IMG/VR virus record: IMGVR_UViG_3300028914_000024
Coordinates: 1-41,426 of that record
Length of the DNA: 41,426 bases
Source: a virus
Direction: 5' to 3' (one strand)
A model generated the notes under the pieces. The model was given only the letters and a program-made list of their open reading frames with translations, was not told where the DNA came from and ran no database searches. Numbering within the stretch: position 1 is the first letter of the stretch; the number at the start of each line of letters is the position of its first letter. Below are positions 7,664 to 28,756 of the stretch, piece by piece. The translations under genes and the position numbers were made by a program.

Positions 7664-8140
7664 CTATAAACTTGTTGTAGGTGCAAATGTTGGTACACCA
7701 TCCGCAATTGTTACTGTGCCTTCTATAGGGTCTCCATCGAAGTACAAATCATATGAAATTTCTTCACCTGAATATTCTGTAATAACTATTACTCCGTCAC
7801 TTTTCTTAGCTGGATATGTTCCTTGATTACCATTCCAAGTATCAACCTCAAGAATGTGTGTAACATAATTTAGTTTATCTCTACCAGCATTTATAAATTC
7901 AAAACAAGGTTCTCCTTTATAAGTTTTCTTAGTAATACTTGATTGTTTATCATTAGAAGTGTGGTCAGTTCTTGCACTATCTTCTACTATGTATTTGGTT
8001 CTTTCTACATTAGCATTAAAAGAAACTGATGCCTCCTCAACACCCCAACCTTCTAATTTCCAAGTAAATGTTGATGATGGAGTTGTGTCTAAAAACATTT
8101 GATATTGACTTCTTTTAATTCTTTCCAAGTTTTCAAACAT
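7664..8140 (-). CDS. Major tail protein
   Basis: 158 aa beta-rich protein, preceded by a short intergenic gap with an RBS. Canonical position upstream of the chaperones and TMP. Confidence 0.65.
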   Translation of the reverse strand: MFENLERIKRSQYQMFLDTTPSSTFTWKLEGWGVEEASVSFNANVERTKYIVEDSARTDHTSNDKQSSITKKTYKGEPCFEFINAGRDKLNYVTHILEVDTWNGNQGTYPAKKSDGVIVITEYSGEEISYDLYFDGDPIEGTVTIADGVPTFAPTTSL

Positions 8141-8321
8141 TGTTTTCCTCCTTTTCTAGTTCTCTTTTTATTAGAACTAAATCTTTATATTCAAGAGGTT
8201 CTATAAAGCCTAATTCATTTAGTTTAACTATTTGCTCAAAAGTCAAACCATTTATTTCATCACCAACAATATATTGTTTATTGTTAGCAGTAAAATCAAT
8301 TTTAGCAATAATCTTTTTCAT
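8133..8321 (-). CDS. Hypothetical small protein (head-tail region)
   Basis: 62-aa ORF translationally coupled on both sides. Confidence 0.55.
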   Translation of the reverse strand: MKKIIAKIDFTANNKQYIVGDEINGLTFEQIVKLNELGFIEPLEYKDLVLIKRELEKEENNV

Positions 8322-8764
8322 AGGCTCATTACCTCTCTTTCTTTATTATCTATATATGTAATTTGTATTTGTATATCAAATATTGCACTTGTTCCATTTG
8401 TAGTAAGCAATGTACCACAATTTAAACACTCAATACTTTCTATATTATCAATTTGAGGCAGTATGCCTTCGTCATTATTAGTTTTGATTATGTTTTCAAA
8501 TTCTTCAAAGAACCCAATATTGTTAAGATTGTTAATAGTGTCTTGTGAGTATGCTTTCCTACTTCTAAATGAATACACATCTTTTTTCTTGGTTATTCCT
8601 ATTATCCATTTTTCAGCCTCAGGATTAGTTGGTATTTTATCTAAGCTAAAATCATCAACTTTGTTTGATAGCATATCAGCATTTATTTGGTACAATCTAT
8701 TTGATGTAAGAGTATTTATAATACCAAATAGATAATCCCTTAATTTTGCTATTCTATAATCCAT
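8318..8764 (-). CDS. Head-tail connector / tail terminator-like protein (by synteny)
   Basis: 148 aa, coupled to neighbours between the capsid and tail genes. Confidence 0.5.
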   Translation of the reverse strand: MDYRIAKLRDYLFGIINTLTSNRLYQINADMLSNKVDDFSLDKIPTNPEAEKWIIGITKKKDVYSFRSRKAYSQDTINNLNNIGFFEEFENIIKTNNDEGILPQIDNIESIECLNCGTLLTTNGTSAIFDIQIQITYIDNKEREVMSL

Positions 8765-9144
8765 TATTTACCTCCACGATTTATGTAATCTTGTACTTGT
8801 TTTATAATATCTTGTCCTTTAGCTGTCCACATAACTTTATCCCAATATGCAGTAGCTAGAGAGTGTTTGTCTGTATGGAAGACAATTTGTTTACCATTTC
8901 TAATTCCATAATAGACTATTTTTGCATATTCTTGAGAATATGTTATTGTGTCAACAGTTACATTGGTTCTATTTATATCACCATTTTTTAACACAACTGT
9001 TTCAGCTAATGTTCCTGTATCAAAAGGAACATATTTATCCATTGCCTTAGCACAAGTATCGGTTAGAAAAGAATGCACTCTTCCACCTTTTTGTATGCCA
9101 AGACGTGTTTTGATTACACTTGTAGGTTTTATATTAACTGGCAT
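8764..9144 (-). CDS. Head-tail joining protein (HK97 gp10-like / minor capsid family)
   Basis: Motifs KYVPFDTGTL and YSQEYAKIVYYG are typical of this family. Synteny agrees. Confidence 0.6.
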   Translation of the reverse strand: MPVNIKPTSVIKTRLGIQKGGRVHSFLTDTCAKAMDKYVPFDTGTLAETVVLKNGDINRTNVTVDTITYSQEYAKIVYYGIRNGKQIVFHTDKHSLATAYWDKVMWTAKGQDIIKQVQDYINRGGK

Positions 9145-9494
9145 TATTTACCACCTATATGAATGTGTTTGCTACCAAAGTTATTGTTTTTTATACTTGT
9201 TATATTATATACCAAATAATCTTTTAAATCATCTTGAGTATTAATGCTTTGAGTAAGTGTGCCTACGACTATAATGTCACCTATTGCAAAATTACTTACA
9301 TCTAAATTATCGTTTTTTGAATAAGGTAGTCTTATCTCTATGTCGTTTGCATTGTCATAACCCTTGTTGATACTAGCACCCTTACCGCCAAATACCCAAG
9401 CATTCTCATAATTATATCTAGTCCATACCTCAAAATGAGTAATTGCATCTAATCCACTCATATGATAAATTGTTACACTATTATTGCATATCAT
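9144..9494 (-). CDS. Head closure / connector protein (by synteny)
   Basis: 116 aa ORF coupled to neighbours downstream of the major capsid gene. Confidence 0.5.
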   Translation of the reverse strand: MICNNSVTIYHMSGLDAITHFEVWTRYNYENAWVFGGKGASINKGYDNANDIEIRLPYSKNDNLDVSNFAIGDIIVVGTLTQSINTQDDLKDYLVYNITSIKNNNFGSKHIHIGGK

Positions 9495-13221: not shown

Positions 13222-14673
13222 TTATTTACCTCCCTTGCTCATATCTTTAAAATCACTAAATGACATATCACTACCTGGATGTTCTTTTAAGTATTTCTTA
13301 TATGCATTCTTTTTTAATCTATCGTATAGTTTTGCACTTTCTCTACCTATTAGGCTTGTATATGTTTGGAATACTCTATCGTCACTAAAGTTTTTGCCTT
13401 TAGGGTTTATCTTTAAGCTATCTAAGAAATCTCTTTGCTCATCATAGTATATCATATAACTACCGCCTTTTGCAAGAGTTTCACCAGCTCTCCACATTGT
13501 TGGCTCGTTCATATGTTCCATTTGTTCAACAAAATCTTGTGGGTTGTCGTAATAATCTAGTATGTGAGCTTGTATGTTTTCACTTACTTCTTTTCTATTT
13601 GATGTGCCTTGAGTTTTTATCTCAGTTCTTTTTGGCAAATCTTCTTTAACTTTGTCCTTAGATGCACCGCTTCGTATTTTTTCATTCATATAATCACTTG
13701 TTGTTTTTGTCTCTTTATAATTTGTTTGATTTTTAGATGCATCGTATTTATCATTCATAATAAGAGTTTCGTGTTGCCAATCGTATATGCTTTCTTGATT
13801 ATATTTGTACATTAATTCTTTTGCATCGTCTAAGTTATCCGTATGGAAACTAGCCTCAGCATCACCGCCATATTTACCTGCATATACTTTGCCATCACAT
13901 TTGTCACGACATTCAGCAACTTTTTGAGCATATTCTTCATCACTATAAGTATCACTTGATTGTTGGAATGATACACTATAGCCTTTTTCAAAGCTAACGG
14001 GTTTTCCTGTTTCAACATCTAAAGTTACATTATCTTCTTTAGAGTTCTTTGCTACATCTGTTATTTTATCTCTATAGTTAGTTTTATCTTCTTTATCCCA
14101 ATAGTCTTTTATTTTGTTTTTGGTGCTTTCGTCTAATTCTTTGTTTATTATTTCATCTCTAGTATTTTTATCTTTGAGTTTATCTCTCCAAGATGCATCT
14201 CTTTTGGCACTTAATTCGTTTAATTTCTTTTCATCCTCAACTGTGTTCCCGCCAAACTCATCATATGCCTTTTCCATTTTTTTTCTATGTTCATTAAATT
14301 CTTTATCCGCTTTGTCAAATTCCGTTTCTCTTGTTTTTCCATTCTGCACATATTTATCACGAATACTAGCCCAATATTGTCTTTCAGTAGGTTGCATATT
14401 CTCTGATTGTTCTAGTTTGCTCACTGCTAAATTGTATTTATCATAATCACTTAAATCTTTGGTGTCCTCGTCTAATTTAGAGATTATTTCTTGTCTTTTA
14501 TCCATCGTTTCATTTATTTTTTTGCCTTTTTCTTCTTCAGTTAATTCTTCTTTTTTCTTTTTCTTGAATTTGCCACTTTCTTTCATAGCACTTGCTAAGT
14601 CTTGACCATCTTTAATAAATACCTTACGACCGCCGATAGTTCTCCATACACCACCTATATCATCTTTTGCCAT
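13222..14673 (-). CDS. Large charged polyvalent-type protein with N-terminal WxTIxGxxVFI motif
   Basis: 483 aa, K/E/D-rich. N-terminus GGVWRTIGGRKVFIKDGQDLASAM parallels the N-terminus of ORF 30255..30836. Confidence 0.7.
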   Translation of the reverse strand: MAKDDIGGVWRTIGGRKVFIKDGQDLASAMKESGKFKKKKKEELTEEEKGKKINETMDKRQEIISKLDEDTKDLSDYDKYNLAVSKLEQSENMQPTERQYWASIRDKYVQNGKTRETEFDKADKEFNEHRKKMEKAYDEFGGNTVEDEKKLNELSAKRDASWRDKLKDKNTRDEIINKELDESTKNKIKDYWDKEDKTNYRDKITDVAKNSKEDNVTLDVETGKPVSFEKGYSVSFQQSSDTYSDEEYAQKVAECRDKCDGKVYAGKYGGDAEASFHTDNLDDAKELMYKYNQESIYDWQHETLIMNDKYDASKNQTNYKETKTTSDYMNEKIRSGASKDKVKEDLPKRTEIKTQGTSNRKEVSENIQAHILDYYDNPQDFVEQMEHMNEPTMWRAGETLAKGGSYMIYYDEQRDFLDSLKINPKGKNFSDDRVFQTYTSLIGRESAKLYDRLKKNAYKKYLKEHPGSDMSFSDFKDMSKGGK

Positions 14674-14817: not shown

Positions 14818-15999
14818 TTATTTCTTGCTTTTTTTCTTTTTAGTAACTTTGTTTAATTCTTCAGCAATTACTTTAACATCTTCTAGTTCTAGTTTGATTG
14901 GTTTTACCTCTTCAAGAATTTCAACCGCATTGTGTTCCTTTAAGTATTCAGCTCTTTCTTTTTCACATTCCCATTCACTTTTGTTTGCTACTCTTAGTTC
15001 TTTCCCCTCTACATCTTGAAAGTTAATTAATGCTCTTACTCTTACCATTTTTTCTTCTTCCTCCTTATAGTCTTTAATTATTTTTTCTTTATCTATCTTA
15101 CCAGTATAATCTAAAAACTTTAACCAATCTTCTAAAGAATGATTATCATACTCTTTGCATATTGGTATTGTTAATATCTTTTTTATATCAAAGTTCATAT
15201 CTAATGGTACAACATAACCATTTACACCATCTTTAATAAGTTCAGTACAACCACCTACATCTGTTACTATACAAGGCACTTTATACTGTAAGCTCTCTTG
15301 AACTGTGTAGGGCAAACCTTCACTATCACTAAGTAAAACAGTGTAATCGGCATCTGCTAAGTAATCCCATATGTCATATCTTTGTTTCCAAAAATGTACC
15401 TCTTCATAATCACATTTATACATCGTTGAATTTGTAAATATATTCCATTCAAATTTTATTCTTGCTTTCTTCATCATATCCATAAGTTTTAAGCATCTAT
15501 TCCAACCTTTGGCTGGGTCTAATCTAGTACAGCTAATTAGATGCAATACTTTATTTGTTTCCCTTTTTGGCAGTAATATATTTTTAATTGTTGTTGGATG
15601 GTCGTGCAATACCTCATCACTCATTTTACTAACAAATTCACCACAACCAACAATTTCTTTTATTCCCATATCGGCATATTGTTGATATAATAAGCCTTTA
15701 TCTAACAAATATTTATAATTAGCGTGTCGCATCTCTATCATTCTTTTAGCTTTTATATTTTTAGGTATTGTACCCCATACACTATTGCGGATGAAAATAT
15801 CACATTCATAAGTTTTGCCTTCTTCATACTTTTCCATCTTTGCAAGTTTAGACATTTTTCTAAGCCTTATATCGTCACCACCGCAATACAATATTGTTAT
15901 ATCAAAAAAATTTCTTAACCACCAACACCAATTATATGCCATTGTTTCCACTCCACCAATTTGGCAAAAATGTGATTGATAAAATATTATTTTTTTCAT
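14818..15999 (-). CDS. Glycosyltransferase, GT-B fold (GT4/group-1-like) with a C-terminal extension of about 85 aa
   Basis: Motif SDSEGLPYTVQESLQYKVPCIVTDVGGCTELIKDGVNGYVV is typical of group-1 GTs. Start overlaps the upstream stop (ATGA). Confidence 0.8.
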   Translation of the reverse strand: MKKIIFYQSHFCQIGGVETMAYNWCWWLRNFFDITILYCGGDDIRLRKMSKLAKMEKYEEGKTYECDIFIRNSVWGTIPKNIKAKRMIEMRHANYKYLLDKGLLYQQYADMGIKEIVGCGEFVSKMSDEVLHDHPTTIKNILLPKRETNKVLHLISCTRLDPAKGWNRCLKLMDMMKKARIKFEWNIFTNSTMYKCDYEEVHFWKQRYDIWDYLADADYTVLLSDSEGLPYTVQESLQYKVPCIVTDVGGCTELIKDGVNGYVVPLDMNFDIKKILTIPICKEYDNHSLEDWLKFLDYTGKIDKEKIIKDYKEEEEKMVRVRALINFQDVEGKELRVANKSEWECEKERAEYLKEHNAVEILEEVKPIKLELEDVKVIAEELNKVTKKKKSKK

Positions 16000-16610
16000 T
16001 GATTAGCACCCCAACTTCCAAACATAAGGTGTCGTGTATATACTTCATCATCAATTTCTTCACTATAGCATAAAGTCTTTCTAGGATAAATAGCCATATT
16101 GTCTTTTTCTTGATATTCCGCTCTATCTCTATCAAAATATTTGCCTATTATATCACTCATTATCATTGTGTTAGTTTCATACTCGTGCCAATTTTCGTGT
16201 GTTTGAAAAGTCTTATTATTATAAACATCTAACATTTCTTTTATTAATTCATTGTTCTTACAAGCACCCATTGTTGCAGTTACAGGATAGTGTTGTTGTT
16301 CAAACCCTGTAAAAAAGCTATGCTTTAAGAACTTGTCTAAAGCCCCATACACTATAACATCAGTATCCATATAAATTCCGCCATAATTATATAAAGCCCA
16401 TAATCTTGCAACGTCAGACACATATGCCCATTTCTTATTATCATAAGCATCTTTTACATATTGATTATAATTAATATTAAAATTATTTTCATTTATTTCA
16501 ATGTATTCCCAATCTGGCATATACTCTTTCCAAGTCTTAATGCAGTTTAATATAGGTTCTGGCTTGTCTTTGCCACCAAACCAGCAATATATAATTCTTT
16601 TAGGTATCAA
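15996..16610 (-). CDS. Glycosyltransferase with DXD motif (GT32 / Gly_transf_sug-like)
   Basis: IPKRIIYCWFGG ... YVSDVARLWALYNYGGIYMDTDV signature. Likely TTG start at 16610 after AGGTGAT (the ORF track extends to 16619). Confidence 0.8.
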   Translation of the reverse strand: MIPKRIIYCWFGGKDKPEPILNCIKTWKEYMPDWEYIEINENNFNINYNQYVKDAYDNKKWAYVSDVARLWALYNYGGIYMDTDVIVYGALDKFLKHSFFTGFEQQHYPVTATMGACKNNELIKEMLDVYNNKTFQTHENWHEYETNTMIMSDIIGKYFDRDRAEYQEKDNMAIYPRKTLCYSEEIDDEVYTRHLMFGSWGANQ

Positions 16611-16635
16611 TTTTATCACCTAATATAATTATATC

Positions 16636-16666: not shown

Positions 16667-17111
16667 AACTTAATAGTGTGACATAGTTTTCTATAAACTC
16701 ATCATTCACTATAGCTCTTATGTTGTTCATATAGTCAGGTATTTCATAGATGTAACCTTTTCTTATTTCGTGTTCTACCATATCATTTGATACATCCAAG
16801 CCTGATGTTAGCCAAGTTTTAATATGTGCTATTGCATCTTGTACCTCTTTATCAGTTTCCTCATACATACCGCCCTTCATATAATCTGTTAGATTAACAT
16901 AGATTGTTATTCTATCACTATTATAATAATTTTGAATTTCTAAGATGTCTTTTTCTTCTCGTTTGTTATTAAACAATTTAGTTAATACATCTTCATACGA
17001 TAGAAAGTAACTTCTTTTTTTGACATCTTCATAATATGGAACATCCATTGATAGAACTAATACCTTGATTTCCCTCCTGTAAGATTTCAACATAATTTCT
17101 TGTTCTTCCAT
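16665..17111 (-). CDS. Hypothetical protein
   Basis: 148-aa ORF with AAGGAGG RBS, downstream of promoter 17189..17217. Confidence 0.65.
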   Translation of the reverse strand: MEEQEIMLKSYRREIKVLVLSMDVPYYEDVKKRSYFLSYEDVLTKLFNNKREEKDILEIQNYYNSDRITIYVNLTDYMKGGMYEETDKEVQDAIAHIKTWLTSGLDVSNDMVEHEIRKGYIYEIPDYMNNIRAIVNDEFIENYVTLLS

Positions 17112-17188
17112 TTTAAATCTACCTCCTTAAAAAATTGTTAAAGAACATATATAAAGATGGGCATAATTCCTCCTCTTTATATGACTAT

Positions 17189-17217
17189 ATTATACCACAA
17201 TTTAAAGCATTAGTAAA
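17189..17217 (-). promoter_or_regulatory. Sigma-A-type promoter (extended -10)
   Basis: Minus strand TTTACT-17 nt-TGgTATAAT. Confidence 0.55.
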
Positions 17218-17352
17218 ACGTAAACCATTTGACATTGAGGTTTACACCCTTATAAAATAAGGGTTTGCGAGGCAAAAATGCCTTGAAAAAAAATTTAATT
17301 TGTGATTTTAAGGTTTCAAGTGTAAACCGACTATATTTGACATAAACTTTAC

Positions 17353-17375
17353 AAAAAAAGAGAGGAAAACCTCTC
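17353..17375 (-). terminator. Intrinsic terminator
   Basis: Minus strand GAGAGG-UUUU-CCUCUC followed by U7, right after the stop of 17377..17733. Confidence 0.7.
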
Positions 17376-17376
17376 A

Positions 17377-17733
17377 TTATTTAACAAGCCAGACATCCTC
17401 AATTTCTCTTTCACGAGGGTCAAATGTGTCATAAACCACTCCATATTTTGAGCATAAAATATGAGATGGCACAGTTATTAATAATATGTTGTTTGGAAAC
17501 ATACCCGCTACCTGTCCAACTGTACCATAGACCCCATATAACCTTTTATATGTTCTATCTAAATAATTTCTTACAAATTCTCTTTTATCAAATAAAGTAC
17601 CTTCGTATTGTGCTATATCGCTCAAATAGTCATAAACATAATCCCAAGATTTATTTGTTGCACAACTTATTGCTCTTATAACACAATCATCTTCATATTT
17701 ATTTAATGGATTTCTATTATAGAACCTGTACAT
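17377..17733 (-). CDS. Putative papain-like Cys/His protein (function unknown)
   Basis: N-terminal DCVIRAISCA and distal SHILCSKYGVVYDTFD resemble a Cys...His dyad arrangement. Inference only. Confidence 0.35.
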   Translation of the reverse strand: MYRFYNRNPLNKYEDDCVIRAISCATNKSWDYVYDYLSDIAQYEGTLFDKREFVRNYLDRTYKRLYGVYGTVGQVAGMFPNNILLITVPSHILCSKYGVVYDTFDPREREIEDVWLVK

Positions 17734-18209
17734 TATCTCATACTTCTTTGTAATGTTTCATTTAACATTTGATGTTGTTGTGGTGTTTCAGCTTCTTCGT
17801 GTAACACTTGAATAAAATCTTCAAGAGCTTTTACCATATAGTGAAATGATTTATCAGTTTCTTCACCCGCACCATATCTATTTCGGCTTTCCATATATCT
17901 ACCATATTCCCCTGACATTCTATCTAAACTATCATCTCCACGATATTTCATATCTCTACCTCTGCGTCCATAGTTGCCATATTCTCCATAGTTTTCTCCA
18001 TAACTACCACGTCCATATTCTCCATAACTATCATATCCTGGTCTTCTAGCACCATAATTACCATAATTCATATTTTCATCCTCCTTTTCCATATGTTTTA
18101 TTTTTGCTAATTTATAAACAATATCTAAATTGTTTGTTGTTAGTCCATCTTTTATAGTTCTTTCTATCGTTTCTTCCGTTAGTCTTAATAAGTTTGACTT
18201 TTCTTCCAA
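17733..18209 (-). CDS. Gly/Tyr/Arg-rich low-complexity protein
   Basis: NYGNYGARRPGYDSYGEYGRGSYGENYGEYGNYGRRGRD core. Probable TTG start at 18209 after AAGGGAG (the ORF track extends to 18272). Confidence 0.6.
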   Translation of the reverse strand: MEEKSNLLRLTEETIERTIKDGLTTNNLDIVYKLAKIKHMEKEDENMNYGNYGARRPGYDSYGEYGRGSYGENYGEYGNYGRRGRDMKYRGDDSLDRMSGEYGRYMESRNRYGAGEETDKSFHYMVKALEDFIQVLHEEAETPQQHQMLNETLQRSMR

Positions 18210-18210
18210 T

Positions 18211-18393
18211 TTAATCACTCCCTTCTTTAAGGATTTGTAATATTTCTTCTTGATTTTTAATAATCTTTTCAAAATATTGTGTATCTTGTTTTTGCAATTC
18301 TTTCATTAAGTCAGTATTGTTATAATCTTGTAATAATAAAATAACACTGTATAATTGTAAAATTAATGATGTTATATCTATATTATTTCTCAT
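18211..18393 (-). CDS. Hypothetical protein
   Basis: 60-aa ORF, coupled to the upstream gene (ATGA overlap at 18393). Confidence 0.5.
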   Translation of the reverse strand: MRNNIDITSLILQLYSVILLLQDYNNTDLMKELQKQDTQYFEKIIKNQEEILQILKEGSD

Positions 18394-18854
18394 TAAATCC
18401 TACTTATGCTAAATGTGGCATTAGTTATAATTGCTTGTGTAGTTGCTATTGGTGTTGTTGGGTCAGTTGGGGTTGGTACACTTGATACACTTTGAACTGA
18501 TATATTAGTTGTTCCTCTAGGACAGACCCTTAACTTTTTATCAAATGAAATAGTTTCGTAATCATCCGCTGTCGCAATAGTAACTGCACGAATTGTGTCA
18601 GGTATTAACACTCCATCTTGATACAAACCTATTGCCACTACACCAGCAGTTGCTGAAGAAACTGATGCACTAAATTCTACATCATAATAGCCTGTGTATC
18701 CATTACCAAATATTTTAAAGTTGGGGTTACCACTTGAGTAATCTAGCCATCCATTACAAGTAGCACATCTTGTTCTTATATCAGTTTCATCAAAAGTTAT
18801 TGGACTTGCATTACTTGGCAATACCAATGGTTCATTTATAATTGTTTCTATCAT
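18393..18854 (-). CDS. TNF/C1q-like jelly-roll protein (BclA C-terminal / ExsF-like pattern)
   Basis: Alternating beta pattern GYYDVEFSASVSS...VAIGLYQDGVLIPDT...NISVQ...ITNATFSISRI resembles exosporium BclA-C/BxpB-type domains. Inference. Confidence 0.4.
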   Translation of the reverse strand: MIETIINEPLVLPSNASPITFDETDIRTRCATCNGWLDYSSGNPNFKIFGNGYTGYYDVEFSASVSSATAGVVAIGLYQDGVLIPDTIRAVTIATADDYETISFDKKLRVCPRGTTNISVQSVSSVPTPTDPTTPIATTQAIITNATFSISRI

Positions 18855-18976
18855 TCTATCTTTCTCCTCTCATAATAAATAAAGAGATAGAACTATGCCT
18901 ATCTCTCGTTTCCCCTATAAAGGGTTTTTGTTAGCAAGTTCTCGTCTTCGAGTATGTAGTATTCTACTCTATGCTA

Positions 18977-19798
18977 TTAAATAAATTGACTTGTAGTGTT
19001 CATTCCACAACCGCATCCACCATTGCAAGTGAAGATAGGTATTCTTCCATAGACTGGTGTGCTTGGAACTGGGCAATTAGAAAGTCTGTTATACAATGCA
19101 TCTACTTCAGCCTCTTGACCCGCTCTTAATTGTGCAGTCTGTTGAATTTGACTAGCCTGTAAATCTTTCATTAAGATTTCTCTTTGTAAATCACCAATTT
19201 TTTCATTTTTTGCATCAATCTTGTCTTGGCATAATTGGTCTAATATTCTTTGAGTTGATGCAGTTTGGCTTGAAATAATATCTCTAATTCCATTGCTTAA
19301 AGCCTCTCTATCAGCACAATTTTCGCTTATTACTGTTGATGTTAGATTAGCTAATCCTAATCTATTTTCACAACAACAATTTAAAAATGATGTATTTAAA
19401 CCATAAAAACCATCTTTAATGCTGTCATTTAATGTGTATGTTGAATTACATAATTGGCTTGATAAAGAATTTATGCCATTTGTAACATCTTGAATATCAT
19501 TGCTTAATTGTAAAGCATTAAAACCTGCATTTGTGTTTTGCATAATTTCTTTTTGCCCATTAGATAACCAAGCATAATCATTATTAAAGCCATTATTGAA
19601 GAAACCACCATTTCCATTGTTTCCCCAACCACCAAATAGTGCAAACAATAAAATTATCCAAATCCAATCACCACCATAACCAAAACCACTATTACCATAT
19701 CCTCCCATCATTGGCATAACTGGGTATGGATAAGCAAAACCATTGTTGCCATTTGTGGTTGCTAATTCTACTGTTGGTTGTATTCCGTTTCCGTTCAT
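18977..19798 (-). CDS. Membrane-anchored Gly/Asn-rich, coiled-coil, Cys-rich protein
   Basis: G/N/Y-rich N-terminus, one TM helix (WIWIILLFALFGGW), a coiled-coil, and Cys clusters (NCCCENR, CNGGCGCG). ATG at 19798 follows AAAGGAGGTGA. Confidence 0.65.
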   Translation of the reverse strand: MNGNGIQPTVELATTNGNNGFAYPYPVMPMMGGYGNSGFGYGGDWIWIILLFALFGGWGNNGNGGFFNNGFNNDYAWLSNGQKEIMQNTNAGFNALQLSNDIQDVTNGINSLSSQLCNSTYTLNDSIKDGFYGLNTSFLNCCCENRLGLANLTSTVISENCADREALSNGIRDIISSQTASTQRILDQLCQDKIDAKNEKIGDLQREILMKDLQASQIQQTAQLRAGQEAEVDALYNRLSNCPVPSTPVYGRIPIFTCNGGCGCGMNTTSQFI

Positions 19799-19830
19799 TA
19801 TCTCACCTCCTTTCATCCTCTATATCAACT

Positions 19831-20076
19831 CTATTTTGAGTTAATATTATTATTAAACATTTGCATCATTTGTTGCCATTGTTGTTTTTGTTGTGGGTTA
19901 AAATTGTTTATAGTTTCATTTAATAAGTCATTAGGGTTATTATTTTTTCTAGCATCTTGATATTTTTTATATGCTTGAGGATTTGTTCTTTTTAGCTGTT
20001 GTTCTAATTGTGTCATCATTTGTTGTGGTATTTGTTGCATCTTGTTTTGCATCAGCATTTGTAACATCTGCATCAT
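19831..20076 (-). CDS. Gln/Met/Asn-rich small protein
   Basis: 81-aa ORF with an AAAGGAA RBS. Overlaps the 3' end of 19967..20464 by 110 nt in the +1 frame. Confidence 0.5.
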   Translation of the reverse strand: MMQMLQMLMQNKMQQIPQQMMTQLEQQLKRTNPQAYKKYQDARKNNNPNDLLNETINNFNPQQKQQWQQMMQMFNNNINSK

Positions 20077-20464
20077 TTTTTATCATTCCTTTCAGTTCTT
20101 CAATTTGCGATTGTAAGTATTGTATTTGTAAATCTTTGCTATCAAGTGGCACTATTTCTTTTAATTCATAAGTTTTAATAGTGCCTTTAGTATTTTTAAT
20201 CCATAATACTGACATATCTTTACTAAAGAATGGGGTATCACCATATATTATTTCTTTGCTAACATCATCAATGGTGTTTGCATATCTCATTGTGTTTGTT
20301 CCGTTTGGTGCAAGTTGGAATGTTTGATTAATAGCGGGTTGTTGATTATTTTTAAATTGTTCTTTCATTTGATTTAGTTGTGCTATTTGATTGTCAATTC
20401 TATCATTTATGCTTTGTTGATTAAAATTTGAATTATAAGTATTCATATATGGATTGTTATACAT
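19967..20464 (-). CDS. Asn/Gln-rich protein with a globular central domain
   Basis: 165-aa ORF with AGGAGGT RBS. The N-terminal 60 aa are N/Q-rich. Confidence 0.65.
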   Translation of the reverse strand: MYNNPYMNTYNSNFNQQSINDRIDNQIAQLNQMKEQFKNNQQPAINQTFQLAPNGTNTMRYANTIDDVSKEIIYGDTPFFSKDMSVLWIKNTKGTIKTYELKEIVPLDSKDLQIQYLQSQIEELKGMIKNDADVTNADAKQDATNTTTNDDTIRTTAKKNKSSSI

Positions 20465-20581
20465 ATTTACCTCCTAAAAGAAAAGAGAGTGTAGTAATAG
20501 TGTTTTAAACTAAATACTTAACTCTCCTTTCTAATTTAAGTATAGATTTTATTATTAATTTAAAAATGCAATAAAAAAGCA

Positions 20582-20815
20582 TCACAATAAAAGTAATGCT
20601 TTCCAAGTTTGCATAAATACATAATCCGCAAAAATATCTTTTAGCTTTCTTATTTCATAGCCGATAGTTCTTTGACTAACACCTATTTCCATAGCTATTT
20701 TTACTATGCTATCTTTATTTATTAACATATTAATTATTCTAATTTGTTCATCCGTAAGTGATACATTCCTTATAAAGTCGTCATATATTGCTTTGATTTT
20801 TAATTTCTCAACCAT
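20582..20815 (-). CDS. Small sigma-70 region-4 / LuxR-like HTH regulator
   Basis: LTDEQIRIINMLINKDSIVKIAMEIGVSQRTIGYEIRKLKD. ATG at 20815 follows GAGGTGG (the ORF track extends to 20833). Confidence 0.6.
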   Translation of the reverse strand: MVEKLKIKAIYDDFIRNVSLTDEQIRIINMLINKDSIVKIAMEIGVSQRTIGYEIRKLKDIFADYVFMQTWKALLLL

Positions 20816-20874
20816 TCCCCCACCTCGTTGCAATATATTACACTATATTTAATAAGATAGAATGCAAACTTTAG

Positions 20875-20914
20875 GCAAATAATAGCAAATAATAGCAAAT
20901 AATGGCAATTTGGC
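20875..20914. repeat. Tandem 10-bp repeats (gcaaataata x3 plus a degenerate copy)
   Basis: ggcaaataat agcaaataat agcaaataat ggcaatttggc read directly, lying between the two HTH genes. Confidence 0.9.
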
Positions 20915-20916
20915 AT

Positions 20917-21138
20917 TTAAAAAAAATACTTGCTAATCTTGTTATAAATTTCTTGCTTTCTATTAGTAATTGTTCTCATAGAATACCCCGTTTTTATCAT
21001 AATGCCCTTTAATGGTTCACCTTGTAAACATAAATCCAGGATTGTTTTTTCTTTTCGGCTTTCTCTTAGGATGCCTTTTTTTATTATAAAGTCGTATGTT
21101 TCTTTAGGCATATCAAAGTAATAATGTGGTTTTTTCAT
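20917..21138 (-). CDS. Small sigma-70 region-4-like HTH regulator
   Basis: KEKTILDLCLQGEPLKGIMIKTGYSMRTITNRKQEIYNKI. Own consensus promoter upstream. Confidence 0.55.
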   Translation of the reverse strand: MKKPHYYFDMPKETYDFIIKKGILRESRKEKTILDLCLQGEPLKGIMIKTGYSMRTITNRKQEIYNKISKYFF

Positions 21139-25982: not shown

Positions 25983-26441
25983 TTAATATTTTTTCCATAT
26001 TGCAATATCATTTAATATTGAAATCATATAGTTTTTACTTGCAACACACGTTCCTGTACTTACCCCACCACTTGTTGTTAATGTTGGTGCATCACCTAAA
26101 TTAGTCAATGAACTAGGTATACTTACACTTGTTGCAGTTGAACCACTTTCAAAATAAATCATACTTTCTATATCAAATGTTGTTGTTGCAGTTATTGTTA
26201 ATGATGTTATTTCACCTAATTTATATGACTTGTTTCCTGTTAAACTAGCTATTGTATATGTTGAACTGCTATTTGTAATAACCTCAGGGCTATCCCCATC
26301 ATAAACTTGTGCCGTTGTTGTTCCATTCTTGTCAGTAATTGTTATCGTTGACACGTTGCTATTTTTAGTAACAGTTGCAGTTGGGCTATACCCCGCACTA
26401 CCCAAGCCACTTATTATTGTATTACCTTTTCTTAAACTCAT
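25983..26441 (-). CDS. Small fibre-like protein sharing the ITITDKNGTTTA module
   Basis: SPTATVTKNSNVSTITITDKNGTTTAQVYDG parallels two segments of 27257..28756. Confidence 0.55.
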   Translation of the reverse strand: MSLRKGNTIISGLGSAGYSPTATVTKNSNVSTITITDKNGTTTAQVYDGDSPEVITNSSSTYTIASLTGNKSYKLGEITSLTITATTTFDIESMIYFESGSTATSVSIPSSLTNLGDAPTLTTSGGVSTGTCVASKNYMISILNDIAIWKKY

Positions 26442-26450
26442 AATATCCTC

Positions 26451-27263
26451 CTAATTAAAATATTTTGCTAAGTCAACATTATAATTGTATGCCACTTCGT
26501 CAGCCGACAAATCTCTATTATATATTAAAAAGTTATGTATTGTTCCGTTAAATGTTCTATCACTTGGTGCATATTCTGGTGGATTTGCTTGTAAATAAGC
26601 ATTCCCAATTGTAAAATACATACTACTATTTAAACTACCGCTGAATGTATTTCTGTCATATACTTGTTGACCATCTATATATAAAATCATTCTTGATGTT
26701 GACATTATAACTAAAGTTAAATTATGTTGTGAGTTATCACTAGCCCAATCGGAGGTTGATATTGTTCTGCCTGAGCCACCTAACCAACCCGCACTTGAAC
26801 TTGAACCCTCGTATTGTACTAAGAAACCCGCACTGCCAATTCCGTGATTACCAAACAAGCCCATATAATTACCACCTGTTTTTACTGTGTATGTGCAACT
26901 TATCGTAACAGGCATATCGCTAAATAAATCGGTCATTTTTTTATCATTAACTGTTACGACACCATTATACGAATAATATAGTCTAAATTTTAGCCCGTTA
27001 GTTGTCCAACCTGAGTTATCACCAGTGCCATTAGAAAAGTTATACATTTTACCAACATTGTTATTTCCACTTAAGTCAGCCCACTCTGTTGCGGATGTAC
27101 TATAACCATTTCCTGTATTATCTATTCCACTATAATAAACTATTAATCCATCAGTAATATAATCATTGCCCTTTGGTTGCCATAATGTAACACCATTTCT
27201 TTCTATTTTTTTAACTGTTCCCTCAGGTATTGTAATACTTTTCACGTTAGAAAAATCTACCAT
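26451..27263 (-). CDS. LamG / concanavalin-A-like lectin domain protein
   Basis: FNGTIHNFLIYNRDLSADEVAYNY is the classic Laminin_G_3 C-terminal signature. Confidence 0.75.
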   Translation of the reverse strand: MVDFSNVKSITIPEGTVKKIERNGVTLWQPKGNDYITDGLIVYYSGIDNTGNGYSTSATEWADLSGNNNVGKMYNFSNGTGDNSGWTTNGLKFRLYYSYNGVVTVNDKKMTDLFSDMPVTISCTYTVKTGGNYMGLFGNHGIGSAGFLVQYEGSSSSAGWLGGSGRTISTSDWASDNSQHNLTLVIMSTSRMILYIDGQQVYDRNTFSGSLNSSMYFTIGNAYLQANPPEYAPSDRTFNGTIHNFLIYNRDLSADEVAYNYNVDLAKYFN

Positions 27264-28756
27264 AATACAACTTCCTTATCAACAGTAGTGTCATCATCCA
27301 ACGTAAATGTCCAAGTTTCGTGTGAAAAACTATGTTGACTTACCCATTCTGTGTCAAAATCACTATTACTAGCTTTTGCTAACACTTGACCCGTTGTTCC
27401 TGCACTTGGCAATCCATTGTTGCTATAATCATCAGTTATATTATAGAAAGTATCGGCATCCTTATTTTGTATTGCATTGTATTCGCTTAGTGTACCACTC
27501 CAAAACTTGTCTAAATTTGTTGTTTTTACATCTTTAACGCCAGTCATAAATTGAGTTTTGTTATACTCTATTTTTTGAAATGTTGTTACGCCTGTTGATG
27601 TAAATACATTGTTTTCCCACGTTCCATTTATTCTAAATGTAACTAAATATAGCGTATTACCATTAAAACTATATCCATCAAAAAGATACATTCTATCTTG
27701 ATTTGTTAATGGACTTTCATTACTCATAATAAATGTGTAATTGTAATTTGTTTTTAATAATACAATAGCATTTTTTATTTGTTTACCATAATAATAGTTT
27801 ATTAAATCAGTTGCACTTTCTTTTATTGCGTCTGTGGTATAATTTTCGTTATTATATGAAAATGTTGTTGGTATTTCAAATCTATATACTTGGTGTTGGT
27901 CTGTATCTACATATTGTTTTGTTGCATAATTACTTAAATCACCACCAACTGCACTTATAACATTATTTTCTATTGTTATGTTTTCTCCTGCTGTATATTG
28001 AACGTAACCATCTCTACCATCAGTTCCGTTAGTACCATTGATACCATCACTAACAATTGCGGTTGTGGTTCCGTTTTTATCGGTGATAGTTATTGTTGAT
28101 GTACTGCCACTTTTAGTTACTGTTGCAATTGGGCTTACCCCATCAACTCCGTCAATACCATTTCTTCCGTCAACTCCGTCCTTCCCGTCAACTCCATCTC
28201 TTCCGTCTCTTCCGTTTGTTCCATTCGTTCCATCTAAAACTTGTACCTCTTTTGATGTTCCACTTTTGTCCGTAATTGTAATAGTCGTTGTTGTTCCAAC
28301 TTTATTTGCATCTATATCTAAATTATTGACCTCATTTAAAGCTGTATCTATGTCATCTAATTTGCCATTAACCTCGTTTAAACCTTCTTGTAATTGCAAT
28401 TCGTATTGTTCTAATTCGCTTGGTGTTATTGGTTGACTATTTTCGGCATCTTTTAATGAACCTTCTAGTGTTGTAAAGTAACCAGGTTTAGGGTTGTATC
28501 TTTGAGTTGAATTAAATGCAACTACACCTAATTCAATTTCACCAGGTTCGGTTAATACTTCACTAGGTATTTCACATTGATTATTTATTATGATTTGTTT
28601 GTATGTGTCTCCTTTTAAAGTAAAATATGCCTCTTTTGTAAATGTTGCATCAAAGTCATCACTAAATTCAAAATCAACAGTTGTTACATTTATTTCTTGC
28701 TCATTTACTGGTGTATTAATTACTTGTATTGTATGCGGTTTAACTATTACTTTCAT
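27257..28756 (-). CDS. BppU-like fibre protein with collagen-like Gly-X-Y repeats
   Basis: N-terminal Ig-like BppU-type region, GTNGTNGRDGRDGVDGKDGVDGRNGIDGVDGVS collagen run, and a second GINGTNGTDGRDG run. Confidence 0.75.
   Translation of the reverse strand: MKVIVKPHTIQVINTPVNEQEINVTTVDFEFSDDFDATFTKEAYFTLKGDTYKQIIINNQCEIPSEVLTEPGEIELGVVAFNSTQRYNPKPGYFTTLEGSLKDAENSQPITPSELEQYELQLQEGLNEVNGKLDDIDTALNEVNNLDIDANKVGTTTTITITDKSGTSKEVQVLDGTNGTNGRDGRDGVDGKDGVDGRNGIDGVDGVSPIATVTKSGSTSTITITDKNGTTTAIVSDGINGTNGTDGRDGYVQYTAGENITIENNVISAVGGDLSNYATKQYVDTDQHQVYRFEIPTTFSYNNENYTTDAIKESATDLINYYYGKQIKNAIVLLKTNYNYTFIMSNESPLTNQDRMYLFDGYSFNGNTLYLVTFRINGTWENNVFTSTGVTTFQKIEYNKTQFMTGVKDVKTTNLDKFWSGTLSEYNAIQNKDADTFYNITDDYSNNGLPSAGTTGQVLAKASNSDFDTEWVSQHSFSHETWTFTLDDDTTVDKEVVLW
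28133..28231 (-). repeat. Collagen-like Gly-X-Y run (11 triplets) within 27257..28756
   Basis: gga-nnn-nnn periodicity read on the minus strand. It generates the mirror-image Pro/Ser-rich plus-strand ORF 28038..28436. Confidence 0.9.

Follow-up and report, generated by a model that had tools for sequence, protein, structure and literature searches.

A widespread phage accessory cassette encoding a TNF/C1q-like protein, a cysteine-rich partner and low-complexity proteins

The operon described here is one copy of a widespread, undescribed and self-contained phage accessory cassette. It lies in the complete genome of a phage from gut or rumen (IMG/VR virus record IMGVR_UViG_3300028914_000024), and this whole stretch of 41,426 nt is referred to as the window. 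An original prediction of seven co-oriented genes followed by a terminator was confirmed, coordinates included: all seven ORFs lie on the minus strand, and the operon runs from 20464 to 17377. The operon and its neighborhood contain the following features:

20917..21138, minus strand, first of two regulators before the cassette, a small HTH protein of 73 aa (sub-threshold GerE/LuxR-type HTH match, E 3.7e-4)
20874..20906, minus strand, three tandem copies of TATTATTTGC, operator-like, between the two regulator genes (read from the sequence)
20582..20815, minus strand, second small HTH protein
20574..20604, minus strand, terminator-like hairpin where the regulator gene ends, 5' of g1 (pattern scan and sequence)
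19967..20464, minus strand, g1, ORF with an AGGAGG box
19831..20076, minus strand, g2, Q/M/N-rich protein of 81 aa, overlapping the 3' end of g1
18977..19798, minus strand, g3, cysteine-rich protein (phrog_16490, E 1.6e-27)
18882..18907, minus strand, weak hairpin in the g3-g4 gap, with a T-rich tail (pattern scan)
18393..18854, minus strand, g4, modeled as a stand-alone TNF/C1q-like jelly roll of the BxpB, ExsFA or BclA-C type
18211..18393, minus strand, g5, helical, type-A-specific protein of 60 aa
17733..18209, minus strand, g6, G/Y/R-rich protein with a TTG start at 18209 and an SD box
17377..17733, minus strand, g7, alpha/beta protein of 118 aa (phrog_3754, E 2e-13)
17350..17375, minus strand, intrinsic terminator closing the operon (GAGAGG-TTTT-CCTCTC, then TTTTTTT)
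15996-16619, minus strand, glycosyltransferase of the Gly_transf_sug / Caps_synth type (Pfam E 2.6e-16)
14818-15999, minus strand, glycosyltransferase of the GT4 / Glycos_transf_1 type (Pfam E 3.8e-16)

The genes are tightly packed: g2 overlaps g1 by 110 nt, g4/g5 and g6/g7 each have one base in common, and g5 and g6 are spaced by a single base. The g3-g4 gap spans 122 nt, and its hairpin could serve as an attenuator or processing site. The TTG start of g6 lies 8 bases 3' of a GAAGGGAG box. For g3, the start at 19798 (MNGNGIQP...) is preferred over the longest ORF from 19816, because homologs begin there and a GGAGG box lies inside the 19816 extension. The cassette is bounded by terminators on both sides. 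The one that closes it consists of a six-pair stem (four G-C), a loop of four and a run of seven T, and many relatives carry a T-run terminator at the place equivalent to 20574..20604 and, between it and the g1 ribosome-binding site, a semi-conserved TTAGT.TAAA.ACACAAT motif.

Co-occurrence of the gene set in other phages, a check named in the original prediction, was found in at least 85 loci and in two layouts, termed type A (that of the window) and type B, with gene order fixed within each. Among the 85 genome loci, which were collected through g3, g4 is present in 64 (adjoining g3 in 64), g7 in 50 and g6 in 46, while g1-like families occur in 68 (18 with g1, 41 with c4 and nine with c18). 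The type-B families c4 and c18 are homologous to g1 (hhalign, probability 91-96%). Further same-lineage loci were drawn from IMG/VR, and all 12 that extend past the regulators contain the cassette, in full or as far as the contig extends. The same-lineage site lies between the minor head and scaffold genes, where the minor head protein is only 53-67% identical, and in one locus (L090) a swapped cassette variant occupies it. The cassette takes different places in different phage backbones; in Dulem virus 33 it lies between the lysis genes and the integrase. The sole cultured carrier is Butyrivibrio phage Ceridwen (protein records QHJ73765-QHJ73771), which is lytic on Butyrivibrio fibrisolvens.

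These data also bear on the view that the operon is not a functional unit, but seven unrelated neighbors whose low-complexity ORFs are non-coding or fast-evolving filler. Such a view could draw on the five of seven proteins that lack a family or fold assignment, on the discovery of g7 alone in other phages and on about 20 loci in which g3 occurs without the other cassette genes. Gene order and co-occurrence are nevertheless held across at least 85 loci with different backbones, the genes have a common terminator and are linked by translational coupling, and g5 and g6 are fused into a single ORF in two genomes (L023 and L029). The overlapping g2 frame is likewise maintained. It is open in 18 of 18 type-A loci with a mean amino-acid identity of 40%, whereas the other two frames contain 110-185 stops, and g2 is for this reason a real gene. 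Because of the co-occurrence data, the absence of a functional unit is effectively refuted and retains a very small probability.

The position of the operon behind small sigma-region-4-like regulators had been recognized earlier, and this pairing recurs: small regulators lie directly 5' of the cassette in at least 30 loci. Both regulators of the window match HTH families below threshold. The second, whose likely start is MVEKL at 20815 (longest ORF from 20833), resembles HTH_38, UPF0122 (YlxM/p13) and GerE, all below Pfam thresholds, and its homologs are found directly 5' of the cassette in 14 of the 85 genome loci and in every same-lineage locus reaching there. A search of the 85 loci for homologs of the 73-aa protein recovered none; in every same-lineage locus extending this far, g1 follows two "up"-family HTH ORFs, both of which the up_83 query detected. 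A second regulator family, k6, which resembles sigma region 4, occupies the same position in 18 loci.

The low-complexity composition noted in the original prediction is beyond chance for g1, g2, g3 and g6. When the best 40-residue windows were compared with the maximum among 42 other proteins of the genome, these four exceeded every other protein: g1 reached a Q+N fraction of 0.47 (0.28 elsewhere), g2 a Q+M fraction of 0.50 (0.23), g3 a G+Y+N fraction of 0.55 (0.47) and g6 a G+Y+R fraction of 0.68 (0.38). This design persists among relatives despite sequence turnover. g1 combines an N/Q/Y-rich N-terminus with a conserved, beta-rich small domain of about 55 aa and a C-terminal helix, and is present in 18 type-A loci. 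Positional counterparts of g2, families c5 and c14 (66-80 aa, with NPQ motifs), occur in 49 type-B loci, at an hhalign probability of only 44-55%. g5 is present in 18 loci, and its database matches are limited to weak XPC-binding / Rad23 hits. g6 consists of an N-terminal helix, a G/Y/R/S-rich disordered center with YGxYG repeats and a C-terminal helix; it matches phrog_28802 (E 3e-6), and its three-part design is constant at a sequence identity of about 20%. Pfam and PDB searches with g1 and PDB searches with g6 gave no match, and no recognizable fold or family emerged for g1, g2, g3, g5 or g6 in sequence-family and PDB searches. By eye, no N-terminus among the cassette proteins resembles a signal peptide, except for the hydrophobic stretch of g3.

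The assignment of g4 to the TNF-like domains of the BclA-C, BxpB or ExsF type is borne out by structure prediction. Its AlphaFold2 model (pLDDT 74, pTM 0.70) best matches BxpB in the PDB (8d02, Foldseek E 1e-4, TM 0.60), followed by ExsFA, BclA-C, Pgp3-C, EDA, 4-1BBL and C1q, all with probability 1.00. In BFVD, it matches stand-alone gut-phage proteins of 130-150 aa (E 1e-9), some of which are named "BclA protein." Six of 34 g4-family members match Pfam BclA_C (PF18573) at E <=0.1 (best 3e-5); the g4 of the window itself gave no PF18573 match in the Pfam search. BxpB and ExsFA of the Bacillus cereus group (8d02, 7r5i, 9h3d), its top two structural matches (E 1e-4, TM 0.59-0.60), resemble the g4 model in being stand-alone TNF-like jelly rolls of about 150 aa, but share only 14% identity with it and no HMM-level sequence match. 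g4 further differs in its phage context outside a sporulation regulon, in hosts that include non-spore-formers, and in extra conserved cysteines and a Thr/Pro-rich loop at about residues 123-141. The BxpB/ExsF trimer docks the leader peptides of collagen-like fibers in Bacillus (PMC10470788, PMC12357932); trimerization and peptide docking are proposed for g4. The fold is also common to the BclA C-terminal domain and to the C1q/TNF heads of collagen-like fibers in phages and giant viruses. In contrast to these, g4 has no collagen stalk or other shaft, which together with the lack of a PF18573 match suggests a free head or adaptor rather than a fiber tip.

The gene next to it, g3, is the most widespread of the cassette, and its unnamed family comprises 974 clusters at 50% identity and at least 7998 relatives at the 90% cluster level. 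The protein has a Gly/Asn/Tyr-rich N-terminus, a short hydrophobic stretch, helical repeats, an invariant CCCExR and a C-terminal CGC. The two Cys clusters reported earlier, NCCCENR and CNGGCGCG, are present, and C147-C149 and R152 are invariant across 35 diverse homologs. The hydrophobic stretch contains 11-14 strongly hydrophobic residues (11-17 in relatives), and the Kyte-Doolittle maximum over 19 residues is 1.39, below the usual 1.6; because of this shortness and low score, the proposed TM helix is only a candidate. g3 gave no Pfam match, and the PDB sequence search returned only weak matches to influenza HA2. Like ExsY/CotY and CsxA, it is rich in cysteines, with invariant clusters, and its gene is coupled to that of a TNF-like protein, as in the exosporium pairings of ExsY with ExsFA and CsxA with BclA (PMC7333573). 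However, no sequence similarity to these proteins was detected. ExsY and CsxA are globular proteins that form lattices, unlike g3, which has long helical repeats along with a hydrophobic, glycine-rich N-terminal part and for which self-assembly is a proposal.

The window genome also encodes a collagen-like protein elsewhere, in which an exosporium-leader peptide of the kind used by the BxpB/ExsFA system was looked for and not found. The likeness to exosporium building blocks put forward by the original prediction is a real parallel in composition (TNF-like, Cys-rich, glycosyltransferase and collagen-like components), since exosporium clusters combine a Cys-rich protein, an ExsF anchor, collagen-like proteins and glycosyltransferases (PMC7333573). 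This parallel and the closeness of the g4 fold to BxpB, ExsFA and BclA-C speak for a module that takes over sporulation or remodels the surface of host spores, be it the coat or the exosporium. The N-terminus of g3, glycine-rich and hydrophobic, also recalls small YjcZ-type sporulation proteins. Against this reading stand the absence of sequence homology between the cassette proteins and ExsY, CotY, CsxA or BxpB, the missing leader, an apparently virulent phage and the carriers: B. fibrisolvens, the Ceridwen host, which is not known to sporulate, metagenome bins (MAG labels of carrier contigs) that include Erysipelotrichaceae, Bacilli and "Tenericutes," and Prevotella-type and crAss-like phage contigs containing g3 relatives. 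This host range argues against spore-surface remodeling as the general function, which we consider highly improbable. The cassette is not spore-specific, and the expected link to spores or to phages of spore formers is not supported.

The papain-like nature predicted for g7 fared less uniformly: the catalytic pattern and a confident model stood, while a significant fold match was not obtained. N8, D16-C17, R20, H91 and D102 are invariant (34-44 homologs, 21-88% identity). In the AlphaFold2 model (pLDDT 89), Cys17 is located close to the N-terminus of helix 15-26, His91 opens strand 91-96 and Asp102 follows strand 99-101, so that the Cys-His-Asp triad has the papain-like order. With about 120 aa, this canonical order, an Asp-preceded Cys near the helix end, a strand-start His and an Asp some 11 residues on, g7 resembles papain-like fold enzymes (NlpC/P60, Tae4 amidases, C39 peptidase domains, CHAP). 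It differs from them in having no significant structural or sequence match (Foldseek against the PDB gave Tae4 as the best, at E 0.7 and TM 0.37) and neither a signal peptide, by eye, nor a cell-wall-binding domain. Its weak fold matches are enriched for the papain-like superfamily (Tae4, the C39-domain transporter PCAT1, USP5, glutathionylspermidine amidase and the Cif homologue CHBP), and g7 is a putative papain-like, NlpC/P60-like or C39-like enzyme. Relatives also occur alone, in Geobacillus phage GBK2 and in Tsamsa-like Bacillus phages; in the latter, their early-region neighbors are a kinase and an Ocr-like anti-restriction gene. Such solitary early-region relatives in unrelated phages suggest that g7 may have a function independent of the cassette.

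A peptidoglycan amidase as the best, non-significant g7 match raises the question of lysis, for which the window has its own genes, about 17 kb from the cassette:

195-407, two-TM holin-like gene
40650-41426, M23 endolysin

Since these are present, the cassette is not the main lysis device. It could be a lysis accessory, in which g3 is membrane-active (holin-like, antiholin-like or membrane-remodeling), g7 is an NlpC/P60- or Tae4-type amidase freed through holin lesions, and the other proteins tune timing or help to breach an S-layer or capsule. At least ten diverse loci (L001, L002, L014, L026, L027, L034, L045, L062, L077 and the crAss-like L088) have an endolysin gene at most about 2 kb from the cassette, and a lysin homolog lies within 1.5 kb in six of the ten loci where any of seven lysin queries found one. 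In its build, with a hydrophobic stretch ahead of a long helical region that contains conserved cysteines, g3 is loosely similar to the single-TM T4 holin T and i-spanins. However, typical TM helices are longer than this stretch, no cassette protein matches a holin or spanin family, and the end of late operons is also the usual landing site of unrelated accessory genes. Separate lysis genes are found not only in the window; L062 encodes its own lysozyme together with a lipoprotein that, ending in a TM segment at its C-terminus, resembles a unimolecular spanin. We regard a lysis-accessory role as rather unlikely.

In being autonomous, terminator-flanked and placed at varying sites between core genes, the cassette resembles phage morons and accessory islands, but it is much larger (seven genes plus regulators), kept lineage-wide and conserved across phage backbones. 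Autonomy with an own regulator and terminators, varied sites, the swapped variants of L090, the Dulem virus 33 location and the g7 relatives beside the kinase and Ocr-like gene would all suit a mobile unit for host takeover, superinfection exclusion or counter-defense that acts on the envelope or immunity of the infected cell rather than on the phage particle; for example, g3 and g4 might prevent secondary infection, with g7 cleaving a host factor. Yet no cassette protein matches any PADLOC defense model, and a TNF-like trimer with a Cys-rich helical and four low-complexity proteins is unlike described exclusion or anti-defense systems. Its retention in every same-lineage locus reaching its position points to more than an optional extra, and its carriers include apparently virulent phages. 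Such a role appears less likely still than one in lysis.

The type-A cassette is joined to variable glycosyltransferase and sugar-nucleotide genes. Glycosyltransferase genes lie 3' of g7 in eight of 14 type-A genome loci and in all eight same-lineage loci with enough sequence, but in only one of 46 loci classed as other (L007, an exception with type-A gene order), and they are absent from the type-B layout. The type-A glycosyltransferase and sugar-nucleotide genes vary in family. Virion-glycosylation genes have been reported for mycobacteriophages, and the arrangement resembles them, except that the glycosylated target here is a candidate only.

We tentatively propose that the cassette builds a cross-linked, sometimes glycosylated protein assembly with g4 as docking trimer, a possible reading that we hold to be less than probable. 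One or two sigma-region-4-like HTH regulators, six or seven packed genes and a terminator would then yield a self-assembling, cysteine-linked structure made during lytic growth, the relevant expression setting given that no integrase was seen in the complete genome, that the window has its own holin-like gene and endolysin, and that Ceridwen is lytic in culture; the window phage likewise appears virulent. g3 would be the organizer, oligomerizing through its helical region and attaching to a membrane or other hydrophobic surface through its short, glycine-flanked hydrophobic stretch. Its CCC and CGC clusters and the conserved cysteines of g4 may cross-link the assembly or bind metal, and the g4 trimer may be an adaptor for docking, in the way that leader peptides of collagen-like fibers dock to BxpB/ExsF. 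The low-complexity, helix-flanked g1, g2, g5 and g6 would provide matrix or assembly chaperones, while g7 might process or link a component. In type A, the adjacent glycosyltransferases, with nucleotide-sugar genes in relatives, could glycosylate a product, the Thr/Pro-rich loop of g4 being one candidate site. Several points count against such an assembly: Q/N-rich and G/Y/R-rich proteins are atypical of virions, the cysteine clusters may serve metal binding rather than cross-linking, and the type-B layout does without glycosyltransferases. For the proposed assembly, whose interactions and location we infer, a coat associated with the particle or the envelope seems to us slightly more plausible than a role confined to the cytoplasm. 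With its own regulator and a position that is often next to lysis genes or at the operon end, the cassette fits an accessory or conditional function in these phages better than a core part of the virion.

The window, which is AT-rich (about 30% G+C) and carries all of its genes on the minus strand, appears to be a complete, circularly permuted genome of siphophage type of 41.4 kb, and no integrase was seen among its scanned ORFs. In the order of transcription, replication genes (a DnaD-like loader and Erf) precede TerS, TerL and the portal, followed by a collagen-like 499-aa protein, a LamG protein, a minor head protein and an HNH endonuclease. The seven-gene operon (g1 to g7) comes after these, preceded by small ORFs and two small HTH genes and followed by a 148-aa ORF, a pair of glycosyltransferase genes and a charged protein of 483 aa. 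The last block is made up of the genes for scaffold, major capsid, connector, tape measure and tail fibre.

Features of the window, with the number of the 85 g3-carrying loci in which each operon gene was scored and, for four proteins, the residue fraction in the best 40-residue window against the maximum among the 42 other window proteins
40650-41426, minus strand, M23-type endolysin with C-terminal wall-binding part, right end
20917-21138, minus strand, small HTH regulator gene (73 aa)
20582-20815, minus strand, second small HTH regulator gene
19967-20464, minus strand, g1, Q/N-rich protein; 18/85 loci; Q+N 0.47, maximum elsewhere 0.28
19831-20076, minus strand, g2, Q/M-rich protein; 18/85 loci; Q+M 0.50, maximum elsewhere 0.23
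18977-19798, minus strand, g3, cysteine-rich protein; 85/85 loci; G+Y+N 0.55, maximum elsewhere 0.47
18393-18854, minus strand, g4, predicted TNF/C1q-like protein; 64/85 loci
18211-18393, minus strand, g5, small ORF; 18/85 loci
17733-18209, minus strand, g6, G/Y/R-rich protein; 46/85 loci; G+Y+R 0.68, maximum elsewhere 0.38
17377-17733, minus strand, g7, putative papain-like Cys-His-Asp protein; 50/85 loci
195-407, minus strand, two-TM holin-like gene (70 aa), after the tail-fibre gene, left end

All seven ORFs of the predicted operon were recovered, with g3 starting at 19798 like its homologs, and the proposed translational coupling is borne out by the overlap of g1 and g2, the single base shared by g4/g5 and by g6/g7, and the one-base spacing of g5 and g6, the latter starting at a TTG (18209) preceded by a good Shine-Dalgarno box. 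As predicted, a clean terminator closes the operon, and a terminator-like hairpin lies between the upstream regulator gene and the operon. No convincing promoter was found upstream of g1, where alignment gives just a semi-conserved motif. The sequence TATTATTTGC occurs three times in tandem in the gap that separates the two small HTH genes (20874-20906), and the repeats resemble an operator or a site to which a regulator binds. Across the window and 17 loci of the same gene order (type A), the overlapping frame of g2 is open with a mean identity of 40%, while the other two frames accumulate 110-185 stops; g2 is therefore a real gene. The low complexity ascribed to the operon was also found, since the best 40-residue windows of g1, g2, g3 and g6 exceed those of all 42 other window proteins. 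By eye, no signal-peptide-like N-terminus is seen among g1-g7 outside g3. Searches of the window proteins against Pfam, NCBIfam and PADLOC gave nothing above threshold for g1-g7, and just an HTH regulator matches PADLOC models, of the CasR/CARF-type HTH. A role of the products in host takeover, exclusion or counter-defence is rated unlikely.

TNF/C1q-like jelly rolls are ten-stranded beta sandwiches, and g4 had been likened to this fold from its sequence pattern. The AlphaFold2 model of g4 (pLDDT 74, pTM 0.70; residues 16-37 disordered) is an all-beta sandwich, and both this model and that of g7 derive from shallow alignments with identities of at least 78% (g4) and at least 74% (g7). Foldseek searches of the PDB with the g4 model confirmed the predicted jelly roll with 53 matches at E <=1e-3, of which the 50 listed all have probability 1.00 and TM scores of up to 0.61; the spore-surface proteins BxpB (8d02), ExsFA (7r5i) and BclA-C rank at the top, followed by Pgp3-C, EDA, 4-1BBL and C1q. 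In BFVD, the closest models are stand-alone gut-phage proteins of 130-150 aa (E 1e-9, TM 0.72), some of them named ‘BclA protein’, and the next are heads of collagen-repeat proteins. By sequence, the g4 of the window does not match Pfam BclA_C (PF18573); six of 34 diverse relatives match it at E <=0.1 (best 3e-5); the family profile reaches PDB BclA at E 0.49, and tblastn of g4 against phages gave no match. Conserved cysteines lie in IPC, NxC and GCC motifs in the type B gene order and at C30, C33 and C111 in type A, and many members carry a Thr/Pro-rich loop before the last strand. Judged from the predicted structure, g4 is the sole firm structural assignment in the cassette.

For g7, a papain-like Cys/His protein had been suggested. 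Residues N8, D16, C17, R20, H91 and D102 are invariant in sets of 34 and 44 homologs whose identity falls to as low as 21%. In the model, which has a pLDDT of 89, Cys17 lies near the N-terminal end of helix 15-26, His91 begins strand 91-96 and Asp102 follows strand 99-101, a predicted placement of Cys, His and Asp that is the papain-like arrangement. The order of the invariant residues and their placement on helix and sheet thus agree with the suggestion, but significant similarity to any known member does not accompany them: Foldseek against the PDB returned nothing significant (best Tae4, E 0.7, TM 0.37), with the C39-domain transporter PCAT1, USP5, glutathionylspermidine amidase and the Cif homologue CHBP among the other weak matches, and Pfam, NCBIfam and PDB sequence searches gave nothing relevant. 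On paper, g7 resembles a papain-fold enzyme in its working and is a putative one by sequence and model. Lone relatives of g7 occur in early regions of phages unrelated to these, namely Tsamsa-like Bacillus phages, where some are annotated ‘putative peptidase’, and Geobacillus phage GBK2 (4980-5369 of locus L086). In the Tsamsa-like Bacillus phage Izhevsk (4968-5363 of locus L087), the relative is annotated ‘putative peptidase’ and adjoins a Ser/Thr kinase and an Ocr-like anti-restriction gene.

The g3 family is defined by an invariant CCC followed by ExR, and most members keep prolines and a CGC motif near the C-terminus, the tail of the window protein reading NCPVPSTPVYGR...CGCG. Of the transmembrane helix predicted for g3, a hydrophobic stretch is indeed present, but it covers just 11-14 residues (11-17 in relatives), and the peak Kyte-Doolittle value over 19 residues is 1.39; a membrane-spanning helix is therefore not established. 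No family or structure match was found for g3. The only PDB sequence matches of its family profile (window 19400-19700) fall in the first 90 residues of influenza HA2 (best E 0.0056) and probably reflect glycine-rich hydrophobic and helical composition rather than homology. The matched region is the fusion peptide and the start of the long helix, in keeping with the g3 architecture, in which a long helix succeeds a hydrophobic stretch rich in glycine. Apart from this weak match, the profiles of the g1, g3, g6 and g7 families gave chance-level matches to PDB sequences. Members of the g1 family have a Q/N/Y/P-rich N-terminus, a domain of about 55 residues that is conserved, and a helix at the C-terminus, and the g6 family keeps a design of helix, G/Y/R/S-rich region and helix at about 20% identity. 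In L023 (9336-10004) and L029 (4768-5388), g5 and g6 form a single fused ORF, which suggests that they work together.

Relatives of g3 number at least 7998 at the 90% cluster level, none of them named and none with a Pfam domain, and the cassette is abundant in gut and rumen metagenomes, the g3 family comprising 974 clusters at 50% identity among 1.84 billion representatives and thousands at 90%. Gene presence was scored by iterated HMM searches in 85 loci, all with g3, which consist of 80 loci from a scan of species-representative genomes together with Butyrivibrio phage Ceridwen, Dulem virus 33 and three metagenome contigs. Two layouts recur, g1-g2-g3-g4-g5-g6-g7 (type A, as in the window) and g7-c4-c5-g3-g4-g6 (type B, as in Ceridwen, whose cassette products are QHJ73765 to QHJ73771). 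Among the type B families, c4 and c18 show homology to g1 (hhalign probability 91-96%), and c5 and c14 are small Q/M/N-rich proteins at the g2 position (hhalign probability 44-55%). From the two layouts, the homology of c4 and c18 to g1 and the position of c5 and c14, the core of the cassette is a g1-like and a g2-like protein, g3, g4 and g6, usually also g7.

In the lineage of the window, whose minor head proteins share 53-67% identity, all 12 IMG/VR loci that reach past the regulators carry the cassette, or whatever part of it the contig holds, at the same site and behind two HTH genes. One locus of this lineage, L090 (4210-9897), has a swapped variant at this site, in which a g1-like gene, a g2-like gene, a short g3-like gene without the CCC motif and a different Cys-rich beta protein of 115 aa are followed by an NDP-sugar dehydratase-like gene, a GT2 gene and a GT8-like gene, suggesting cassette exchange and glycan diversification. 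On other backbones, the cassette lies after replication genes (L004, L005) or after lysis genes (Ceridwen, Dulem virus 33). The gene set is thus conserved in many phage loci on different backbones, and the co-occurrence expected of it is found both in the 85 loci and within the lineage. The 68-kb contig of L003 holds, after the scaffold gene, a second half-cassette g4-g5-g6-g7 with two GT2 genes (17104-20241), which reflects either true duplication or the joining of two related phages in a chimeric assembly.

The regulators travel with the cassette. The family of the upstream regulator used as query (up_83) lies directly upstream in 14 loci, and in 18 this place is taken by a second family (k6), whose members are small HTH proteins similar to sigma-70 region 4. 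Of the two small sigma-region-4-like regulators originally predicted upstream of the operon, the two small HTH genes are there, while the matches to GerE, UPF0122 and HTH models are sub-threshold. A k6 member is found in Ceridwen (L001 6289-6522, QHJ73763), and the small ORF after the Ceridwen endolysin, considered as a holin, was ruled out as such because it belongs to this family. In L008 (6335-6973) and L015 (5770-6354), the k6 protein has a multi-TM domain fused to its N-terminus, and in L003 a membrane protein of the AgrB family occupies the same upstream position (7996-9219); these arrangements hint at signal-dependent control of the cassette. Terminators flank the unit, at least 30 loci have a regulator upstream of it and at least three different genomic positions are occupied, as expected of a moron-type element. 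The data establish an autonomous cassette that has its own regulator and jointly made products. The operon is a real finding rather than an artefact, and that the genes form no functional unit is the least probable of all explanations considered.

Glycosyltransferase genes follow the cassette in eight of 14 type-A genome loci, in all eight lineage loci with enough sequence and in one of the 46 loci classed as other (L007, itself with type-A gene order). They were ruled out as part of the core, as they occur only with the type-A layout. Their families vary (GT2, GT4, GT8-like, Gly_transf_sug), and nucleotide-sugar genes sometimes accompany them. The 483-aa protein of the window (13222-14673, minus strand), which is very K/E/D-rich, has no family match and lies just upstream of the scaffold gene, recurs in L089, L090, L096 and L101 of the same lineage where the sequence extends there, directly before the scaffold gene in L096 and L101.

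An endolysin gene lies within about 2 kb of the cassette in at least ten diverse loci, and its frequent adjacency would suit products that are accessory to lysis; the window, however, has a separate two-TM holin-like gene and an M23 endolysin, about 17 kb away from the cassette, and such a role, though the most credible of the alternatives, is judged improbable. The proposal of g3 itself as a phage holin or spanin is weakened by the window and L062, which have lysis genes of their own. Butyrivibrio fibrisolvens is the isolation host of Ceridwen, which grows lytically in culture; lytic growth is the setting of the cassette in at least the window phage and Ceridwen. Carrier contigs bear the MAG labels Clostridia, Lachnospiraceae, Erysipelotrichaceae, Bacilli and ‘Tenericutes’, labels that are unreliable for phage contigs.

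Relatives of g3 also occur in Prevotella-type contigs and in one crAss-like phage, where in L062 (7096-11139), L080 (7845-10864) and L088 (6719-9800) they are followed by a conserved set of small genes of their own. These encode a protein of about 110-145 aa that looks beta-rich (with a GCC motif in L062), one of about 170 aa with a beta domain and a coiled coil by its look, one of about 95-113 aa that has an R/G/Y/D-rich region besides a helix, and one of 131-137 aa with an HExxH-like motif; in L062, the genes just upstream encode a lysozyme and a spanin-like lipoprotein that has its TM segment at the C-terminus. The set is analogous to the cassette in position and composition. Presence of the whole cassette in Bacteroidota phages is not supported, as only g3 is detectably homologous and the neighbours stay below 10% hhalign probability, with no link to g1, g4, g6 or g7.

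The operon had been read as a spore-surface module. Exosporium gene clusters combine a Cys-rich lattice protein, an ExsF/BxpB anchor, collagen-like BclA and glycosyltransferases (PMC7333573), and BxpB/ExsF is a stand-alone trimeric docking adaptor for fibre leader peptides (PMC10470788, PMC12357932). The cassette parallels these clusters in composition only, the g4 fold being the sole matching component, and it is not a member of them, its hosts not being restricted to spore-formers. No relevant Pfam or PDB sequence match was found for g3 and 34 relatives, nor any homology to ExsY, CotY or CsxA, and exosporium-leader models gave no match in the 499-aa collagen-like protein. The Ceridwen host Butyrivibrio fibrisolvens, which does not sporulate, the g3 relatives in Prevotella-type and crAss-like contigs and the mixed MAG labels argue against remodelling of the spore surface, which is very improbable. 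Co-occurrence of the genes in phages was thus recovered, but the tie to spore-forming hosts was not; the structural guesses of the original prediction were largely right, its spore interpretation is not supported. What remains is a BxpB/BclA-type TNF-like protein used within a phage accessory unit, whose other components have no identifiable counterpart. Megablast of the region against GenBank phages gave no match, and no description of the cassette was found in the searchable literature on phage BxpB/ExsF or BclA-like modules and on phage Ceridwen.

Fibre-like genes lie at 25983-28756 of the window, between the portal and minor head genes, an unusual place for fibre genes. The 499-aa collagen-like protein combines a collagen-flanked surface repeat with a phage tail tip domain and also matches collagen-adhesin models; the others are a LamG (concanavalin-like) protein of 270 aa and one of 152 aa that matches CFSR weakly. 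They could be head fibres or partners of g4.

Since g4 is the only firm structural assignment and its known stand-alone representative, BxpB/ExsF, is a docking adaptor, it is tentatively proposed that the cassette encodes a self-assembling, cysteine-linked assembly, a reading held at well under even chances. In such an assembly, g3 would be organiser and anchor, g4 trimers would serve as docking heads, the low-complexity proteins as matrix or chaperones, and g7 would process or link one component, while in type-A lineages the adjoining glycosyltransferases may modify a product. A particle-associated site is favoured by retention within the head-gene block of the whole lineage, by the lack of obvious signal-peptide-like N-termini outside g3 and by the common use of g4-type folds on phage and giant-virus fibres. 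Conversely, an accessory or envelope-associated role is the better fit for the dedicated regulators, the changing position of the cassette and the hydrophobic stretch in g3. A bolder reading, more doubtful than a part in host takeover, is that the phage makes a previously unknown coat, extracellular or associated with the particle and equivalent to the exosporium nap, with g3 as cysteine-cross-linked stalk or lattice, g4 trimers as docking heads and a low-complexity matrix, glycosylated in some lineages. Virions would be decorated, bundled or enclosed by this coat, or else it would be anchored in the membrane of the infected cell as a spike of stalk and head, for persistence or adhesion in gut and rumen. 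The remaining probability belongs to functions outside all of these explanations.

The cassette is very widespread and odd in composition, with a function that we infer, and it is conserved across unrelated phage backbones, yet annotated only as ‘hypothetical’. A BxpB/BclA-type TNF-like module, known as a spore-surface anchor, is in routine use by phages of non-sporulating anaerobes, where it is accompanied by a cysteine-rich partner and several proteins of prion-like composition. With Ceridwen as a cultured carrier, the question of the cassette is directly testable. If its products do coat or adapt particles or cells, they would constitute a new layer of phage surface biology, with a bearing on persistence, adhesion to mucus or fibre and immune recognition, and would be a source of self-assembling protein materials.
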